64,000 bases of DNA, from assembly GCA_964106915.2 (NCBI GenBank), contig OZ066918.1. One strand, 5' to 3'. A model generated the notes under the pieces. The model searched no databases, was not told where the DNA came from, and saw only the letters and a list, made by a program, of their open reading frames with translations. Shown one piece after another: positions 18,096-30,200 of the stretch. Source of the DNA: Podarcis gaigeae. Lineage: Eukaryota. The translations under genes were made by a program, and so were the position numbers. How positions within the stretch are numbered: the stretch's first letter is position 1; every line of letters begins with the position of its first letter.

Positions 18096-19065
18096 TCATA
18101 GAATCATAGAATCAGAGTTGGAAGAGACCACAAGGGCCATCGAGTCCAACACCCTGCCAAGCAGGAAACACCATCAGAGCACTCCTGACATATGGTTGTC
18201 AAGCCTCTGCTTAAAGACCTCCAAAGAAGGAGACTCCACCACACTCCTTGGCAGCAAATTCCACTGTCAAACAGCTCTTACTGTCAGGAAGTTCTTCCTA
18301 ATGTTTAGGTGGAATCTTCTTTCTTGTAGTTTGGATCCATTGCTCCGTGTCCGCTTCTCTGGAGCAGCAGAAAACAACCTTTCTCCCTCCTCTATGTGAC
18401 ATCCTTTTATATATTTGAACATGGCTATCATATCACCCCTTAACCTCCTCTTCTCCAGGCTAAACATGCCCAGCTCCCTTAGCTATTCCCCATAAGGCAT
18501 CATTTCCAGGCCTTTGACCATTTTGGTTGCCCTCCTCTGGACACGTTCCAGTTTGTCAGTGTCCTTCTTGAACTGTGGTGCCCAGAACTGGACACAGTAC
18601 TCCAGGTGAGGTCTGACTAGAGCAGAATACAGTGGCACTATTACTTCCCTTGATCTAGATGCTATACTCCTATTGATGCAGCCCAGAATTGCATTGGCTT
18701 TTTTAGCTGTCGCGTCACACTGTTGGCTCATGTCAAGTTTGTGGTCAACCAAGACTCCTAGATCCTTTTCACGTGTACTACTCTCAAGCCAGGTGTCACC
18801 CATCTTGTATTTGTGCCTCTCATTTTTTTTGCCCAAGTGCAATACTTTACATTTCTCCCTGTTAAAATTCATCTTGTTTGTTTTGGCCCAGTTCTCTAAT
18901 CTGTCATGGTCATTTTGAAGTGTGATCCTGTCCTCTGGGGTGTTAGCCACCCCTCCCAGTTTGGTGTCATCTGCAAATTTGATCAGGATGCCCTTGAGTC
19001 CATCATCCAAGTCATTGATAAAGATGTTGAATAAGACCGGGCCCAAGAAAGAACCCTGTGGCACT
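18096..19065 (-). mobile_element. CR1 LINE 3' fragment (RT C-terminus + 3' UTR)
   Basis: ORF 18483..19064 has [27 protein letters not shown] and [15 protein letters not shown]. It continues after a frameshift as GMFSLEKRRLRGD. The tail is (GATTCTAT)n, read as tcatagaatcatagaatc on +. Confidence 0.95.
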
Positions 19066-20826
19066 TTGAAGAACTGAAGGTTGCTGTGCTTTTCTTTTTT
19101 ACGCTGTATACTACTATTACTCTAACTGTGAGAGTTCATCTCTTTCTTGTTTAGAGTGATGGGTTTTTTAAAATCTGAAGACTTATGAGATAGTGTGAGA
19201 GACAAATTAGGATGAAAAGGACAGAAAAATGTGAAATAAACATACTGTAAATCAGAGAACGACATATCAGCCCTGTGGAGTATACTCTGTCTTTTGCTTT
19301 TTATTGGCATCCTGTGGTCCATCAACGAGAGTTAGGGGCAAAACTGTGGCTCAAGCAGGCAGACATATGCTAAGATTTAAGGAAGGGTGTGCCTCTGAGC
19401 GCATGTGCAGCCAAGGAATTTGTGAGCAGTACCAGAACCAAGTTCACAAGTCCTTTCACTCCTTTCACCCCACTCCTGTTTTTTCTCCTGATTCCTCCCC
19501 CCCCCCCCCGGTGGTGGTGGTGGTAGTGGTAGTGGAAGGATCTATCAGAAAATTTCTATCCATCTTCTTCCCACCCCTGCTATAAATCAACAGTACATAA
19601 TTTGATGGAGCCCTATAGCAGAGTCCCACTAACTGTTCCTGCTAGACCCTGACATGTTCCTGCTTTCTTAGTTCTAGTCTAGCCCCCTCTCTCTGTGCCT
19701 GCTACATCGATGCATTATTCTATCCACCCCATCTGGCCTATTTGCATTGTTTCTTCTCCACATATTTGCAACAAACTTGTCCATCCCTCCATGGTACTGG
19801 CGAGCCTTGTGTCATTGCTCTGCCTGTAGCTTAATGGGCTGGGATGGCAAGCTATACTTCACACTTCCTAGTTAGAGACAAAGGGAAACAACAGAACCAG
19901 GGAATACTGAGCCCCTCCTCTCTTTGTAGTAGAGAACCCCCTTTGTCCAATTATTATATTACAACCCAGCCAATTAATCCAAGTATACTGGGGTGGGGGG
20001 GTGGGATAATTTTAAATAGACTGTTTGAACCTTGGGCTGTAAATAGATGGTGTTAAACACAAAGGCATTCATCAGCACTGAGCACCCTTTTATAAAGGAT
20101 TTCACTGCTTATAAGGTGATTTTTAAAATCCACATATTCATTCACTAATGATGAACTAATTAATACTTTCCAGTCTGGTAATTAATTATCTTAAGTTAGT
20201 GCATTTCAACAATCTTCAGCAGGAAGTCCCAGAGAAGTTATCATTCTTATAGTATCATAAAGACACTTCTATATTAAAGTGATACCTCAATTGTATTGAA
20301 TACCAGACACAATGATGCAATGAAACATCCTGACTAGCCATTTTTCTAGCTCCCCCCAACTATCTGGCCAGATAAATGAAATGTTCAACATCCCTGAGAA
20401 CTGTGATTTTTTGTTTGAATATATGAACTCTAGATTTACATATCATTTATGAGGTGCCTAAGTTTGAAACATCTGGTCTCTATAGCTGATGTCTTTATAA
20501 CATACAACGATGAGGGAGGTTAGCTTCCTGTTCTGTTTCCATTTTAATTTCTGACTTGACAACTACAGCACATATTATAGTAATAATATCTCTGTAGTCA
20601 CATATGAAACCATTTCTTCTTCCAGCACTGAAAGGTGTGAGATGAAAAGATTCTTGAAATTGGACAGCTGCAAAGTTTTAAGTGCTACTTTTAAGCCAGA
20701 ACTGTCCCCATCATGCTTTCAGAAACACTAATAATATATAAAGCCTTGACATCCTTCCGACAACATTTTCCTGAATCTCAAATTGCTCATGCATTAGAAA
20801 TTTTCTTAAAAGGCTCTGAAGTATAT

Positions 20827-22520: not shown

Positions 22521-23399
22521 AGTTTATCAGTCTAGATTTCATTTGAAGCTTTAATAATGGAAATAAAAGTTTCTGAACTCCTTCTCCCAGCTATGCAGAA
22601 GAAAGGGAGGGGAGAGCTCAGAGGTTGTTCATATCTTGCTAAACCATATGTGACATCTGAATGTGGCCATTTTTTAGGTTATATGACATGAAAAACGTCA
22701 GAACATGTCAACAATTAATAGTCTTCACTGGCTGCAGTTTTAGCATCTGTTTGGTAGCTGCATAAAATACTTTCTGGGTCTTTCAGTTAACAATCAAGCA
22801 CACAGTATCTGTAAAATATAGGGGACTCCTGTGTATCATCACTATTCTGCATAGCCTGAAGCTGCACATCCTGGAAGCATACAATATATCAGCATTTTGA
22901 CTTATGTGATGTAAATTGCTCATTACCAAAATCAGAAGCCACCTTTTCACCCTGCACCGTAAACAGTTTACTTCAAAAGTTTGCACAAAAATGACATGGT
23001 TCTGGAGTTCAGCCAGTTTTTCAAAGAAGTCCCTAAATGGTAACTTCATGTGTTTGTTATCTATCTTGAAAACTTTTTGCTTTTCCTTTGATGGCACTGG
23101 GATGTTCATATCAAAAGAAGGAAAAGCAAACCAAGAATTCATGGAACTAAAGAAAGCTTATCCCTGTAAATTGCTTAAGGGCCTGCCTGAGGAAACTGGT
23201 TCTACTTGAAACAACATTTTCCCCCATTCATGAATTGGTTTTCTTTACAATTTTGTATCAATTTCGTTTAAGATAGTGTTCTACCTCAGACCGGTGTAGC
23301 CTAGACAAATATGTCACCTTGGTAGTTCGGGAAAAGTGTAGAGATATATAAATATTTTAAAGTACCCCCCAAAAAGTTTGATGTGTTTTGTATAATGCA

Positions 23400-23900
23400 G
23401 AGCAGTCTACACAAGCCCAAGTGGAACCCGTTTTAACGACCTTTGATCGGCAACCTGGCTGTACACGGCCTCGGGATGTCAAGCCTGGGCAGGATATAGT
23501 GAAAGATTCGACAACCCTCTGGTCAAACTCAGAAGCTGTGGCAAGACTGAATGCTCTTTTGGAGGCAAACCGAAAAGGATGTCTTCCACCTGCCTTACAC
23601 TGCATGTTCCCTACAGCAACCGCTGACCCAAAAGGCCCACCCCTCTCAATTTTAGAGCATACCTTAAATGCAGAGTCTATGGACCTGTCGCTAAGTGATA
23701 CCCCCGTGCACCAGAACCCATCCCCGCAGCCACCAAAAATTAAGCCTCAATCCATGGCTGCTGCTGCTGCGGTAAGTGGTGTTTGGAAATTGCTGAGTAA
23801 GTAAGCTACAATTACTTCCTTCTTCCAGCCTATTGCCCCCCCTCGCCGCACGCATTCCCAGGTGGATTCTGCCGTGTCGGCTCCACAAGGCCCGGCATGA
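23400..23900 (+). pseudogene. 3' part of LINE ORF1 (5'-truncated, one internal TAA at 23802-23804, terminal TGA at 23898-23900)
   Basis: Frame is open from the insertion boundary (ORF track 23388..23804) and continues after the TAA as ATITSFFQPIAPPRRTHSQVDSAVSAPQGPA* in the same frame as ORF2. Confidence 0.65.
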
Positions 23901-23909
23901 CTCGATGGG

Positions 23910-26900
23910 GTGACCAGGAGATCACTTACTTTCTTATCCTGGAATGTAGCTGGCATTAAACCTAAGCTGATGGACCCATCCTTTGTCGCCTACATAAAAG
24001 GCAGTCGTATTCTTTTACTGCAAGAGACCTGGGCTTGTGAGGGCTTCTCCTTATCAGGGTATAAGGGCTTCTACCTGAATGCACACCAGAATTCACTATC
24101 ACCTGGTAGACCACGAGGTGGACTGGCTACCTTAGTTTCTTTGGCCTTAAATCTGCAGGTGGAACAAATCGACATCCAGTCGTCATCCATGCTGGGTGTA
24201 AAGCTACAAACAGCGGAGGAAGTGTTCGTGGTGATTAATGTTTATTTGCACCCAACCTACAAGAAAAACCTGGTGGACCAAAGATGGAGGGGAATTCAAC
24301 TGACTCTTGAAACTCTCCTAGAGAAATATCCTGAAGCCTCCTTCCTAGTTGCAGGAGATTTCAATGGCCGATTGTCTCACTCTGATAAATCATTATTTGC
24401 TAAATATAATAAATATCCCCCACTACCCATTTTAACCTCAGACCTTTTACCCAGGAATTTTAAAGACAGTGTTGCTACATACGCAGGTTTTAAATGTAGA
24501 CAAACTTTGATGTCTCTTAATTTTCACCTTTTAAATGGAGCTCTCAGTTCTGATTACCCTGCCGAATTTACTTTCTGGTCAGGCTCCCGAGCCTCTACCA
24601 TAGATTTTATTTGGACATCAGTAGACCTAATTCCCAAAATTTCTAACTTTAGGGTGGTAACGAGGCTGGAAAGTGACCATTTTACATTAGAACTCTCTCT
24701 GACCCTGGATGGAGAATTGGCTACCTATTCCTGTGTGCCTATTACAAATAACCAGCTTCAGATGAGACCCACTGCATTAATAAGGACCAACAATTTGGCT
24801 CAACGGATAAATGAACTCCTTCGGTCTGACCAACTGCAAGAGACAAGGGACTCCCTTGTCCAGGCAGTTGAGCCACTGCCAATGTATGACAAATTAGTAG
24901 ATCTGCTAAAACCTTTGTTGACTAAGGCCTCGGTAATGAATAGTAACCATTTCTCTCATAAAAAGTGGTTTGATGAGGAATGTAGACACTTCAAGAACAA
25001 CCTATATAATGAATTCTTGGCATATAGGGCATCAAATGACCCCGCACCTAGCAGTCACCTTATGAACCTCAAGAGAAGGTATAAAGCACTATTAAAGGAA
25101 AAGAAGCTTGCGGCAGAAAGAAATGATTGGAACAATCTTCTAAAAGCTGCAGAAAATAGAAATCCCTCCTCCTTTTGGCACCAAATTTCTCAATACCTGG
25201 GTAGACCGTGGTCAAGGATAGAACCCCAAATTTCAGCTGACAACTGGGAAAGCTTCTTCTCCGATTTATATGCAGCTCATGCTGCCAGTGGAGAAAGGAT
25301 AGAATTGGCCCCCTTGCCTGAGTGGGATCCTGTTACCTGCTCTGAAGTGGAAACACTTATAGGCCAATTTGAGGCGGGCAAGGCACCCGGAGACGATCTT
25401 ATCTCCATAGATGTTATTAAAGCCAATAAGGATTGGTGGTGTCCACCCTTAGCAGCTCTTTTTACTTATATAAACAAAACAGCACAATTTCCTCCAAGCT
25501 GGAACTCTGCACTGATTGTGTTAATCCACAAGAAAGGGCCACGCACAGACCCGGCCAATTTTAGACCAATTAGCCTGCTAAATGTTATCAGGAAGATCTA
25601 TTCAAGATTTCTACTTAACAAATTAACGACCTGGATGGAAAGTAACAACATCATCGCAGAGGAACAGGCGGGTTTCCGCCCTGGAAGATCAACAACAGAC
25701 CAAATCTTGATCCTAAATCACTTGGCCACCAAGTATGCTGACAATGGCCTAAAAGCCCTCCACGTCGCCTTTATAGACTTTAAGCAGGCTTTTGATCTAA
25801 TTCCCAGGAACCAGCTATGGGCAAAATTGGCAGCGACATCTATCGACCGCCGCCTTCTCCTGCTGATTATTAATTTGCATACAAATACCTTCCTGAGGAT
25901 TAGGCTAGATAGCAAGGGGCTAATCTCCAATCCGGTTGCCACCACTAGAGGGGTAAGACAGGGCTGTTTGCTTGCCCCTGCCCTATTTAATTTCTATATT
26001 AATTCGCTAGTGGTGCATATGGCAAATACTGATTTCCATCCATCAAAACTGGCAGGACGAGCCTTGAATGTCCTGCTGTATGCGGACGATGCCGCCCTAT
26101 TAGCTACGTCCCCCATCGGATTAAGGAGGATGCTTCGAGCTCTTCATGAATATGTGACCCAACATGAGCTCCAACTAAATTATGCCAAAATAATGGTCTT
26201 TGCCGCTCGACCGAAACCTAATTTATGGTCAATTAATGGTATTCCTTTAGAGCAGGTCGGCTGCTTCAAATACCTGGGTCAGGTTGTTAGATCAAATAGG
26301 TCCTTCTTGGCGCACAGAGAATACATAGCCTCGAACGCATCGAAAGCAGCCTTGGTGATTAGAATCCTGTACTCTAAGAAACAGGCACAAACTGTCAAAG
26401 TTGCCTTGCGACTCTTTAAAATGAAAGTCCTCCCTCTTCTACTGGTGGGCATTGCCTTGGGCTCACGTAGGGACTTTGAAAAATTGGAATCTATCCAAAC
26501 CCAATTCCTCAGGGCCATACTCAGGATCCCCCCCTCCGTGGCAGGTGCGATCATGAGATTGGAAACCGGTTGCCAAGCCTTTAGGTATGTGGCCCTGAAA
26601 GCGAAGTTATGGCTTTGGCTTAGGCTTTGCTTCAGACCGGTGGGTTTGGCCCCCTTGATTCTGAGGGATAACTTTAAATCTCCATGGGAAGGGGAGATAG
26701 TGGAGGAAGTGCAGAAGTGCGGGTTGTCCTCCCTTTATATACAGTCCATGACGTATAACCACGCAAAGGCGGTGATCGCCCAAAGATTAAGGGATATTGC
26801 GAGACAGGAGGACATAGCCCGTGTGAAACCTGGGGGAGCAGATGTACCGAGCTGCTCCAGCTCGCTACCTGGCGGATATCCACTACGTGGAATACCGCAG

Positions 26901-27237
26901 ACTATTTACCACGGCTAGGCTGAATGTTCTTGACTCGGCGGTTCTGAAGGGAAGATATGGAGGAGTCCCATATGACCAGAGATTATGCCATTGTGCGTTG
27001 GGTGAGGTAGAATCCACAGAGCACATTTTAATGAGCTGTCCCTTCTACAACGATTTAAGACAGTATCTTATAACCCCATACTTACCCCAGCTTAGTCCCC
27101 GACAAAGAGGAAAGCAGACAGCATATCTGCTAAATAAGTCTTCTAGGAAAACAACTTTGTCAGTGGCTAAATTCCTTTTCCTGGCACTCAAGCGTTGGAA
27201 ACGTACAATTGAATGCCTTGATGTGGGTTATCTGTGA
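23910..27237 (+). CDS. LINE ORF2: AP endonuclease + reverse transcriptase + C-terminal CCHC-like knuckle, one +1 frameshift near 26832-26842
   Basis: APE motifs SWNV, LQETW, GDFN, STIDF, SDH. RT motifs PGDD, FRPISLL, QAGFR, FIDFKQAFD, GVRQGCLLAP, LYADD, FKYLG. ORF 26842..27237 supplies RLCHC...EH...C. Removing one G from the run at 26832-26836 joins the two into about 1108 aa. Confidence 0.93.
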
Positions 27238-30200
27238 GAGGTTTAGTGCTGTGGCCCTACCTTATTCATGTACCCCTATGATGTTTTAGTTCATAATTCT
27301 GTATTGTGTTTTATTTCTGTGTTTTATTTCTGACTATCGGTCGAATAAAGGAAATTGATTGATTGATTGATTGATTGATTGGTATAATGCAAAAATCTTT
27401 TCTGAGGAACAGCAAGGTCCCAGTAAAAAAACCAAAAACACCCACATTTGAATGCATAAATAAATCTATACGTGCATCAAAATGGTCTCAAGTTTGTTTT
27501 TAAAAAGGGGGGGAATATATCAGACTTTGACTCATTTACTTATGGGTACAGTGATATGAAGTTATATAGACAAATACACACACATCTTATACAGATGATG
27601 TAGCATGTGATCACATGGAGGCTGGTATGGGGACTGCATTTGAAGACCCAAACCCTGAGTGCCACACATTCATTGGAACTTATGAATGGTGCCCTTGGGC
27701 ATAAAGGTTGTATGGTCACGGGCTCCATTTCATAAAACTCATGGCTTGCATTTTTGCACAGTATTAATTATGTAGACAGAGTTTGAGGGGGCCCCTCCAT
27801 AAAGCGTGCTGCAGTGCGTCCTCTATTGCTGAGCCTAAGTCAGCTGTCAGCTGTTGCTTGAATTAGTACTGCCCACCATTGTTCCAACAAATTGGAGAAC
27901 ACCCCTGAAGACTAGGCTCCCCCTCCACCTGTCATGTAGTCTGCACAGGGAGACAGTGACTAGTAAGTTTTGACAAAAAAACCCACAGTGCCATCATACT
28001 TCACACTCTATTTCAGTAGCTGAATGGCACAAAGAGAATGCACAGTTTCTTCCTGCCCAAGTAGAAGCACACATAGTATGTTGACTTCATATGCTTTAGC
28101 TTTTTGCTTATTCACACATGCAGAAAGGTTGGCTGTTTGAAATACTGCCAAGTGGGGTCTGCTTCACATAGCAAGTAGTTTGGGAAATGCCTCTTCTTTA
28201 CAACTACTGTTTTTTAAGTGATATCTTAGACTCTTCTTGGCACAGACTTAAAGAATAAAACCACATGGATAAAAAGGCACATGCCAAAAGATTGGCACTT
28301 TAAAGGATGCTGCAAAAACACATCTAATCTTAGAAAAATCTATGAAATATTTCTTCTATTTATCAAACATGTTTGAAAAGACAAGAAAAGGGAAACAGTT
28401 CAGATGATAATGTGCCTCACTGTCTCTCCTATACATACAAATTGGGGACGGGAAGCAACATCTCACCTTCCAGGTCTTACAGACCTGTCCCACTAGACAC
28501 TTACTAGTGAGCATAATGTTTGACTAGGCCTTATGCACATTGCATTATAGCTGAGCTGAAAACACCAAGAGATGTTTTTCAGCTCAAAACAGCTGAAAAA
28601 TAGGCATGGGTCAAGGAGTAAATTGGGAGAGATTAAAAGAAATTTAGGGGGACTTATCGTTGGTGGGTGGCAGTAGGTGATTTTAAATTAATTATTTTTC
28701 TTCTGCCAAGCTTGTGAGAAGCAAAACTGCAGTTGGAGGCTGTTATTTTCTTTCCCCTATAGTCTTGTTCCTGGGCATTCTGGGGGGGGGGGATGGCTAT
28801 TGCCAAAATAATTATGGTGGTTCCCCACTAGAGACCTCCAATAGCCAATTGCTAGACTGTTTTGTAATGATACTAAATACATATGTATTTAAACGGTGCT
28901 ATTGCATGCCAAAAGTAACACTCTTCCCAAATATCTAAATAAATGTTGCCCTCTAGTAGCCCCCAAACTTCAGCACTCACAAATTTAGGTGCAAGCCTTT
29001 CATAACTGCCTTATGCAGAGTAGCTTCTATGTGGGTAGGCCTGAACAGAGTGATGAATATACCAGGCAAAATTCAGGCACATAAATGGGCAATATTGCCT
29101 TACACACCATCGATTGTACATATATGCACCCTAGTCAATCATTTTGTCCTAGCATAAATTACTGATTGCCCCAGAGGAGGCACTGGTGCACCAGAAGTGC
29201 AGGGACAGAAGCCACAGTTTTAGCTCTGCTAAATGTTTCCTAAATCTGTATGATATGGACCATTGCACTTGGATATGATCACCAAGGGTTATATCCAATG
29301 TGCAATAGACTTCTGCTTGTGCAATGGAGCTGACCCCCATGATTTGTGGGGCTAGTAGTGGGGTAAGAAGAAGTACCATTGTCTAAGTACAGGTCCACTT
29401 GTGTACACACACACACGACTCATTGGTCACTATTTACTACAATGCAGGCATTAGGAAGTTAAATACCCAATAAATAAGGTGCAAAACACACTACAGAAGT
29501 ATAGAAACTGAATTTTGTAATTAATTGTGAGATTCTCTCCTTGCTCCCCTTTTTGGCTTTAGTCTCAAATACATTTAACTTAATCCAACTCTAACTAAAG
29601 TTAAGGAAGGGGGAGAATCAGCCTTCATTATTTATTTGAAAGATCAGTAGACCATACCTCTAGTATTATTAAAGCTGTAATAACAACAGTCAGTCAATTG
29701 TGCTTTAACTATTAACATACAGTAACAGCCGCCCTTTGCCAGTTTTTGTTACCTCTACATAGCTTCGCAGGAGGCTAATCTACATTTCCTAGTTAAGTTC
29801 CTCCCTTCACATGAAAGTGCTTACACTTTGAGACAAATGTATCAGGGGGAAAAAGAATGTAAAAGGAGAGAAGACATTTTGAAAAGGATTTATGTGATTG
29901 CCCCAAATCCACCTCAATAATAGGAAACAAAATCAATATATTTAAAGCTATTTTAACAACTATAGGGTGAGCAATCTATTCAAAGATTTTATAACTTAGG
30001 TCGTGACATATTGGCATATCTTATAAAGCAACCGTCTCCTACATCTGCCATTTACAAATGTGTGTCTTTTTTCAATATTGATTCCATAAACAAAGCCTCT
30101 TCTTCCTTTGTAGCTGAAAGGGAAAGCAAAATGATGCAGGCATAACAGGAATGGGAACAAACAGCGACATCCGGACCCAATGTTGCTTTTTATTTATTTT

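Follow-up and report, generated by a model that had tools for sequence, protein, structure and literature searches.

Does a stop codon near the end of a LINE ORF1 in Podarcis gaigeae hide a PCNA-interacting (PIP) box that belongs to the LINE family as a whole, and might that family reach PCNA through it? The stretch of DNA analysed here, 64,000 nucleotides of contig OZ066918.1 (the window), raises this question at 23796-23831, where the codons AGT AAG TAA GCT ACA ATT ACT TCC TTC TTC CAG CCT read S-K-stop-A-T-I-T-S-F-F-Q-P; this reading, given in an initial annotation of the sequence, was confirmed in the ORF1 frame. Judged from sequence, a canonical PIP box at the end of ORF1 is real at the level of this lizard LINE family and has been knocked out in the window copy.

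The element that carries these codons is an APE-type LINE, as an ORF2 with APE and RT, an upstream ORF1, a 3' simple-repeat tail, a target-site duplication and 5' truncation were all found (Table 1). Sister contigs begin to align at 23399 and their loose ends continue into upstream family sequence in 4/4 runs; the copy is therefore 5'-truncated within ORF1 and dead. Its ORF1 remnant is 96% identical to the intact sister P0030, and its ORF2 is 98% identical to the intact sister P0002, with a 2-codon gap and a frameshift near 26830. Named relatives come from Podarcis lilfordi and P. muralis, and no second copy of the LINE is present in the 64-kb window. At 18483-19121 on the minus strand, the window holds a 5'-truncated RT fragment of another LINE (RVT_1 match), which by its appearance we take to be CR1-like.

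Table 1. Features of the LINE copy and its target-site duplications, with positions in the window.
Feature	Position	Strand	Remark
Left target-site duplication, 10 bp	23390-23399	+	Last A possibly 1-nt microhomology with the LINE
5'-truncated, dead APE-RT LINE, probably RTE-X	23400-27381	+	
ORF1 C-terminal remnant, 166 codons and terminal TGA	23400-23900	+	Broken by the private TAA
ORF1 block common to both subfamilies, predicted helix	23520-23585	+	Sole confidently folded part of the remnant
PIP-box motif, family version K-Q-A-T-I-T-S-F-F-Q	23799-23828	+	
Private TAA replacing the family Gln codon	23802-23804	+	3/3 covering runs, 6/6 spanning proteins
ORF1 stop TGA, then CTC; same-frame ORF2 next	23898-23903	+	Candidate readthrough or reinitiation site
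ORF2	23901-27237	+	First in-frame ATG only at 23970
ORF2 APE endonuclease	about 23934-24680	+	
ORF2 RT	about 25524-26282	+	
ORF2 C-terminal Cys/His knuckle	about 26977-27054	+	
AATAAA, then (ATTG)7 3' tail	27344-27381	+	Read off the sequence
Right target-site duplication, 10 bp	27382-27391	+	

In a quickly built RT tree covering 74 of 87 rows, the LINE fell into a 33-row group with an SH-aLRT of 92, together with both RTE-motif rows and all 15 knuckle-tagged rows. The LINE is probably an RTE-X element within the RTE superfamily, a membership inferred from an RT tree without named reference rows. This superfamily unites RTE and RTEX (PMC11203168; for further RTEX background see PMC10294476 and PMC5753468), and the combination of an ORF1 with an APE-RT ORF2 that ends in a Cys/His knuckle is RTE-X-like. 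Some RTEX ORF1s are described as carrying an esterase (PMC3905857), whereas a Pfam scan of four ORF1 pieces of this LINE, partial rather than full-length, revealed neither an esterase nor any other domain.

Whether TAA is a lesion of this copy or the genuine end of ORF1 can be judged from its sisters, for which the evidence consists of four sequencing runs and nine ORF1 protein records. The runs, 4 of 24 listed and derived from four organisms and four studies, were aligned on 23380-24060. Position 23802 is C at full depth in X1 (265.6/265.6), X10 (135.8/135.8) and X13 (51.9/51.9), with one contig each; run X16 has no coverage of this position, and the count is therefore 3/3 covering runs. All differences in the contigs of X1 (23503-23832) and X10 (23670-24060) are accounted for and none falls in the remaining motif codons; three differences in the X13 contig were not displayed, and the state of the TGA is not certain there. 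Six of the nine ORF1 relatives span the site, one stops at the Gln and two (P0027, P0029) fall short. All six spanning proteins (P0025, P0028 of P. lilfordi, P0030-P0033) read KQATITSFFQPI and share a C-terminus 24 residues past the second Phe. P0026, from a subfamily about 50% identical, keeps K-Q at the aligned place, after which the record ends; this end could reflect a private lesion or a genuine terminus without the motif.

These data support TAA as a nonsense mutation of this copy alone, in a codon that specifies Gln in the family, and they bear out the initial annotation, which had expected CAA as the consensus: every covering sister has CAA or Gln, and sister copies uniformly carrying TAA, the outcome that would have counted against it, were not encountered. 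TAA as a genuine ORF1 end was ruled out accordingly, the real end being the TGA at 23898-23900. Gln at PIP position 1 is thus the family state and is missing from the window's own copy. The sequence around the motif had been described less accurately: the motif codons stood, whereas the family has P-G-K-Q where the window copy has L-S-K-stop, two further substitutions, at 23794 and 23796, being confined to this copy as well, and ORF1 extends to the TGA. Three of the six private substitutions cluster within 9 nt (23794-23802), an arrangement with a chance of about 0.008 that results in a GTAA-GTAA tandem and possibly goes back to one clustered mutation event.

The bare pattern stop-x-x-[ILM]-x-x-[FY]-[FY] matches 13 times in the six frames of the window and the strict Q form 7 times, and K or R precedes just one of the 13 stop-led matches. 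As the bare pattern is this common, the status of the motif hinges on the sister copies, and it is the Gln carried there that raises it above chance. The family version fits the published consensus Qxx[I/L/M]xxF[F/Y] (PMC5371812) exactly, so that the identification of K-Q-A-T-I-T-S-F-F as a canonical PIP box holds; I at position 4 and F at positions 7 and 8 are present in the window copy and in 6/6 sisters. Shuffling of the 173-aa sister P0031 produced a canonical PIP box in 91/100,000 cases, or 11/100,000 with a preceding K or R, and shuffling of 427 residues of P0027 did so in 532/100,000. A whole ORF1 of about 500 aa would hence contain one by chance with a probability of roughly 0.6% (91 + 532 per 100,000), an estimate which applies to one ORF1, whereas the scan behind the initial annotation covers many LINEs.

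Comparison with established PCNA ligands pointed in the same direction. The 12-mer shares 6/12 residues, including the non-consensus T and the Q after FF, with the PIP peptide of Pol-delta p66 (POLD3), a measured PCNA binder with a Ki of 28.9 uM (PMC4103810 Table 1); this score was reached by 0/20,000 shuffles and the score against the p21 peptide by 266/20,000, figures that overstate the surprise since the reference peptides were picked after the motif had been seen. Pol-delta p66 is a host protein, and homology beyond the motif is not implied. PIP-like peptides range widely in affinity and include some non-binders (PMC4103810). A sequence search of the PDB with the 28-aa motif region gave no match at E values up to 10.

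The conservation of the motif cannot be told from the background. The initial annotation had proposed to look for CAA at 23802 and for I and FF kept against a divergent background; CAA is the family codon and I and FF occur in 6/6 proteins, but when the two closest subfamilies are compared, the motif lies in an invariant stretch of 16 aa, and the tail contains another, unrelated invariant stretch of 15 aa. The 38 ORF1 variants comprise 14 synonymous and 24 non-synonymous changes, near the neutral expectation of 0.34 synonymous, and form a weak test as they mix private and lineage changes. More distant LINEs were represented by 80 metagenome loci kept of 215 confirmed, 24 of which include the endonuclease start; 17 of these 24 have upstream open frames of at least 120 codons. 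No canonical PIP box was present in the 6,481 residues of the open frames upstream of the endonuclease in these 17 loci, nor within 600 nt before the endonuclease in 30 distant loci. Relaxed PIP-like strings in L008 and L011 were rejected as lying outside the consensus; the one in L008, Q-x-x-F-x-x-Y-F, misfits at position 4; it follows an in-frame stop, thus belonging to the ORF2 side, and precedes the endonuclease by 14 residues. A metagenome scan with the ORF1 tail gave 598 pattern matches and a viral-contig scan with ORF2 gave 60, with 0 confirmed in either case. As far as tested, the PIP motif appears to be lineage-restricted.

It is against this background that the motif might be regarded as an accidental string in an ORF1 tail that evolves fast, owing its family-wide presence solely to the youth of the family and having no PCNA role in vivo. 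The near-neutral variants without excess conservation, the lack of a canonical PIP box at 0/17 distant loci and the P0026 record that stops at Gln would all agree with such an origin, and CAA is a likely parent of any private TAA, which would make the confirmed Gln only a modest test. We nevertheless consider this unlikely, given the rarity of the motif, of its basic-residue form and of its p66 likeness among the shuffles described above, and given its location no more than 33 residues from the end of a probably unstructured tail. Many PCNA partners carry their PIP box near the end of such a tail.

Lack of structure in the ORF1 tail around the motif is itself probable rather than certain. In an AlphaFold model built from an alignment of 6 rows, residues 50-76 are the sole folded part of P0031 and residues 77-173 have no predicted secondary structure; tail pLDDT values of about 42-52 mean low confidence across the tail, so that disorder is suggested rather than established. 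The tail consists of 67-83% disorder-promoting residues, which together with the lack of predicted secondary structure agrees with its earlier description as Pro/Ala/Ser-rich and probably disordered. A single-sequence fold of P0027 reached a mean pLDDT of 37.7, and in the ESM Atlas all hits to P0027 120-310 scored below 0.9, with no usable hit to P0031.

An FF pair predicted to be exposed in this way could be read by proteins other than PCNA, as PIP-like motifs cross-react with the Rev1 C-terminal domain, Mlh1 and CRL4-Cdt2. The motif would then serve another FF-reading repair factor (the Rev1 C-terminal domain or Mlh1) or constitute a CRL4-Cdt2 degron, coupled to PCNA, by which the host would eliminate ORF1p. 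Both appear very improbable. The PIP degron consensus calls for T-D in positions 5-6 and for a basic residue at +4 from the last aromatic, whereas the LINE motif has T-S and, at +4, Ala (Val in two sisters). A Rev1-binding motif requires a helix after FF, where the LINE motif has Pro at +2, and the K-Q start is a PIP feature that neither Rev1 nor Mlh1 needs.

The full extent of ORF1 differs between records. In the divergent subfamily it reaches at least 427 aa (P0027), whose last seven residues resemble, we presume, a translated sequencing adapter, so that the end of this record is probably an artefact; P0028 fails to align with P0027 over its N-terminal half, which was left out of the analysis. 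The close sisters P0030-P0033 are all called at 173 aa, with a Met just upstream of the truncation point (equivalent to 23379-23400). Loose-end sequence of the sisters contains an out-of-frame TAA one base before this start ATG, and ORF1 may therefore be split. Two ORF1 blocks are kept between the about 50% identical subfamilies, the predicted amphipathic helix at 23520-23585 and an NxESMDLS block at 23655-23693; the latter presumably resembles the CtBP-binding PxDLS motif.

ORF2 has no canonical PIP box of its own: the pattern Qxx[ILMV]xx[FYW][FYW] occurs nowhere in seven ORF2 proteins (0/7). The nearest solved protein to ORF2 is human L1 ORF2p (E 2.5e-26), with an alignment that spans L1 residues 432 to about 770 and stops short of the PIP region at 407-415. 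L1 is likewise an APE-RT LINE, and its retrotransposition is reported to need PCNA recruitment (PMC10830420). Its PIP box lies between EN and RT of ORF2p, however, whereas the motif of the lizard LINE is situated in the ORF1 tail. The L1 ORF2p box, which the initial annotation treated as established, has been reported across all vertebrate L1 (PMC5381506) but is contested by work in which PCNA is bound by another motif of the wrist domain, termed 'PUB' (PMC7617806). The PUB motif is a wrist helix with Trp/Ile plus Asn in the Q pocket. According to the same study the L1 PIP region forms a packed helix, in contrast to the probably unstructured surroundings of the lizard motif.

Clamp-binding motifs have been gained repeatedly by transposon proteins, including those of pogo, Tigger, Lemi1, L1, Tn7 and IS elements (PMC5371812). 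The pogo, Tigger and Lemi1 transposases carry PIP boxes and pogo binds PCNA in two-hybrid screens (PMC5371812); like the lizard LINE, they combine a transposon protein with a canonical PIP box. They differ in being DNA transposons with the box on the catalytic protein, whereas here it is found on the accessory ORF1 protein of a retrotransposon. A sliding-clamp motif on a transposon protein is thus of a known kind. The literature searched (mostly open-access papers) contained no report of a PIP box in a LINE ORF1, and RTE-X descriptions searched likewise reported none in ORF1; we therefore describe it as a location for which no report was found, which is not proof of novelty.

The reading that we prefer, with a probability of about 0.6, is that ORF1 provides this lizard LINE family with a PCNA tether. 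It builds on the family Gln, the motif and its position, the same-frame ORF1/ORF2 junction and an ORF2 without a canonical PIP box, and it proposes PCNA binding, a nuclear role and readthrough. In active members of the family, the unstructured tail at the end of ORF1p would present KQATITSFFQ as a functional PIP box, with Gln, Ile and both Phe docked into the Q pocket and the hydrophobic pocket of PCNA. The LINE particle might thereby be tethered to PCNA-loaded DNA at forks or repair sites, where the tether could serve target-primed reverse transcription or processing of the insert. ORF2p, having no canonical PIP box, would be tethered via ORF1p of the same particle, or covalently by readthrough of UGA-CUC. 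The window copy is a dead, 5'-truncated insertion, in which TAA would have arisen after integration.

The use of PCNA by LINEs is unsettled even for human L1, the long-accepted PIP box of which has been challenged by PUB. An ORF1-borne tether, if true, would mean that a separate vertebrate LINE lineage exposes a canonical PIP box on ORF1p and has recruited PCNA convergently, and it would give ORF1p a nuclear, integration-linked role. A motif in ORF1 can moreover be mutated without disturbing the RT fold, a complication that confounds work on L1.

How ORF2p is made bears on whether this tether could be covalent. ORF1 ends at the TGA and ORF2 runs on in the same frame; the TGA is unchanged in X1 and X10, not certain in X13, and is the end of 6/6 spanning proteins, and the long X1, X10 and X13 contigs cross the junction without a visible indel. 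The first in-frame ATG is located downstream of the first APE motif. Stop-start coupling of the AUGA type was rejected because the ATG that overlaps the stop is out of frame, and an ATG at 23905 because it is private to this copy. As no usable in-frame AUG is left, ORF2p requires readthrough or non-AUG reinitiation. The ORF1-ORF2 fusion considered in the initial annotation does not hold as a genetic fusion, since the in-frame UGA-CUC between the ORFs is conserved in the family; a fusion protein could arise only via readthrough. Splicing around the stop was also considered, as GTAAG splice-donor-like sites occur on either side of the motif at 23772-23777 and 23797-23801, but the runs showed no joint across the junction; the one run guessed to be RNA had no coverage of the motif. 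A Podarcis gene model (P0029, predicted only) connects the ORF1 tail with mid-endonuclease sequence and thereby bypasses the motif region.

The stop context UGACUC is one base off the type II signal UGACUA and falls outside the core type II pair (UGACUA/UGACGG); it is listed as a variant for a dicistro-like virus (PMC13517186). No stable RNA structure was found 3' of the UGA (z -0.47 to +0.14), and such structure is not always needed. In 7 of the 24 distant loci, an open in-frame stretch of at least 120 codons leads directly up to the final stop preceding the endonuclease (L014, almost a duplicate of L011, fell under the 120-codon cut and was left out of the count). Exact readthrough hexamers occur at 4/7 of these junctions, namely UAGGAU in L011 and L013, UAGGUA in L026 and UGACUA in L030; the L008 context departs from such a hexamer by a single base, and TAA-ATG is found in L029 and L035. 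Given 7 hexamers among 192, the probability of 4/7 is about 6e-5 by a hand calculation that ignores base composition. Only L026 among the distant junctions showed a stable 3' fold (z -2.4). Readthrough has been proposed, from a consensus, for Paramecium LINE Group 3 (PMC5405496), in which ORF1 and ORF2 likewise share one frame across the ORF1 stop; Group 3 belongs to a separate ciliate clade, and the portion of that source available to us mentions no PCNA motif.

As an alternative to a covalent link, PCNA might be bound by free ORF1p only, with ORF2p produced separately by AUG-independent reinitiation and having its own non-canonical, PUB-like site, and with no fusion protein being formed. This overlaps with the ORF1-borne tether and concerns the fusion step only. 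A GUG lies four codons past the stop, L1 ORF2 is thought to arise by AUG-independent reinitiation and SART1 also reinitiates (PMC5972666, PMC5009743), and a separate site on ORF2p has its parallel in the PUB motif of L1 (PMC7617806). The unstructured 3' flank and the non-core UGACUC would also be in line with it. We regard it as somewhat unlikely, since no in-frame AUG occurs until past the first endonuclease motif, the AUG that overlaps the stop belongs to another frame, the same-frame junction is free of indels in the sister contigs and exact readthrough hexamers recur at related same-frame junctions.

An extension of the ORF1-borne tether, which we put forward tentatively and consider unlikely as it stands, is that the LINE enzyme itself is an ORF1-ORF2 readthrough fusion with the PIP box about 37 residues ahead of the endonuclease. 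A flexible linker would then hold the clamp by the nicking domain, excess free ORF1p would display further PIP boxes, and the arrangement would represent a third, convergent LINE route to the clamp. Junctions at which ORF1 and ORF2 share a frame and no AUG is usable were observed at 23898-23903 in the window and in L008, L011, L013, L026 and L030. The occurrence of such same-frame, leaky-stop junctions here and in several distant LINEs opens readthrough, as a way of making ORF2p, to direct testing.
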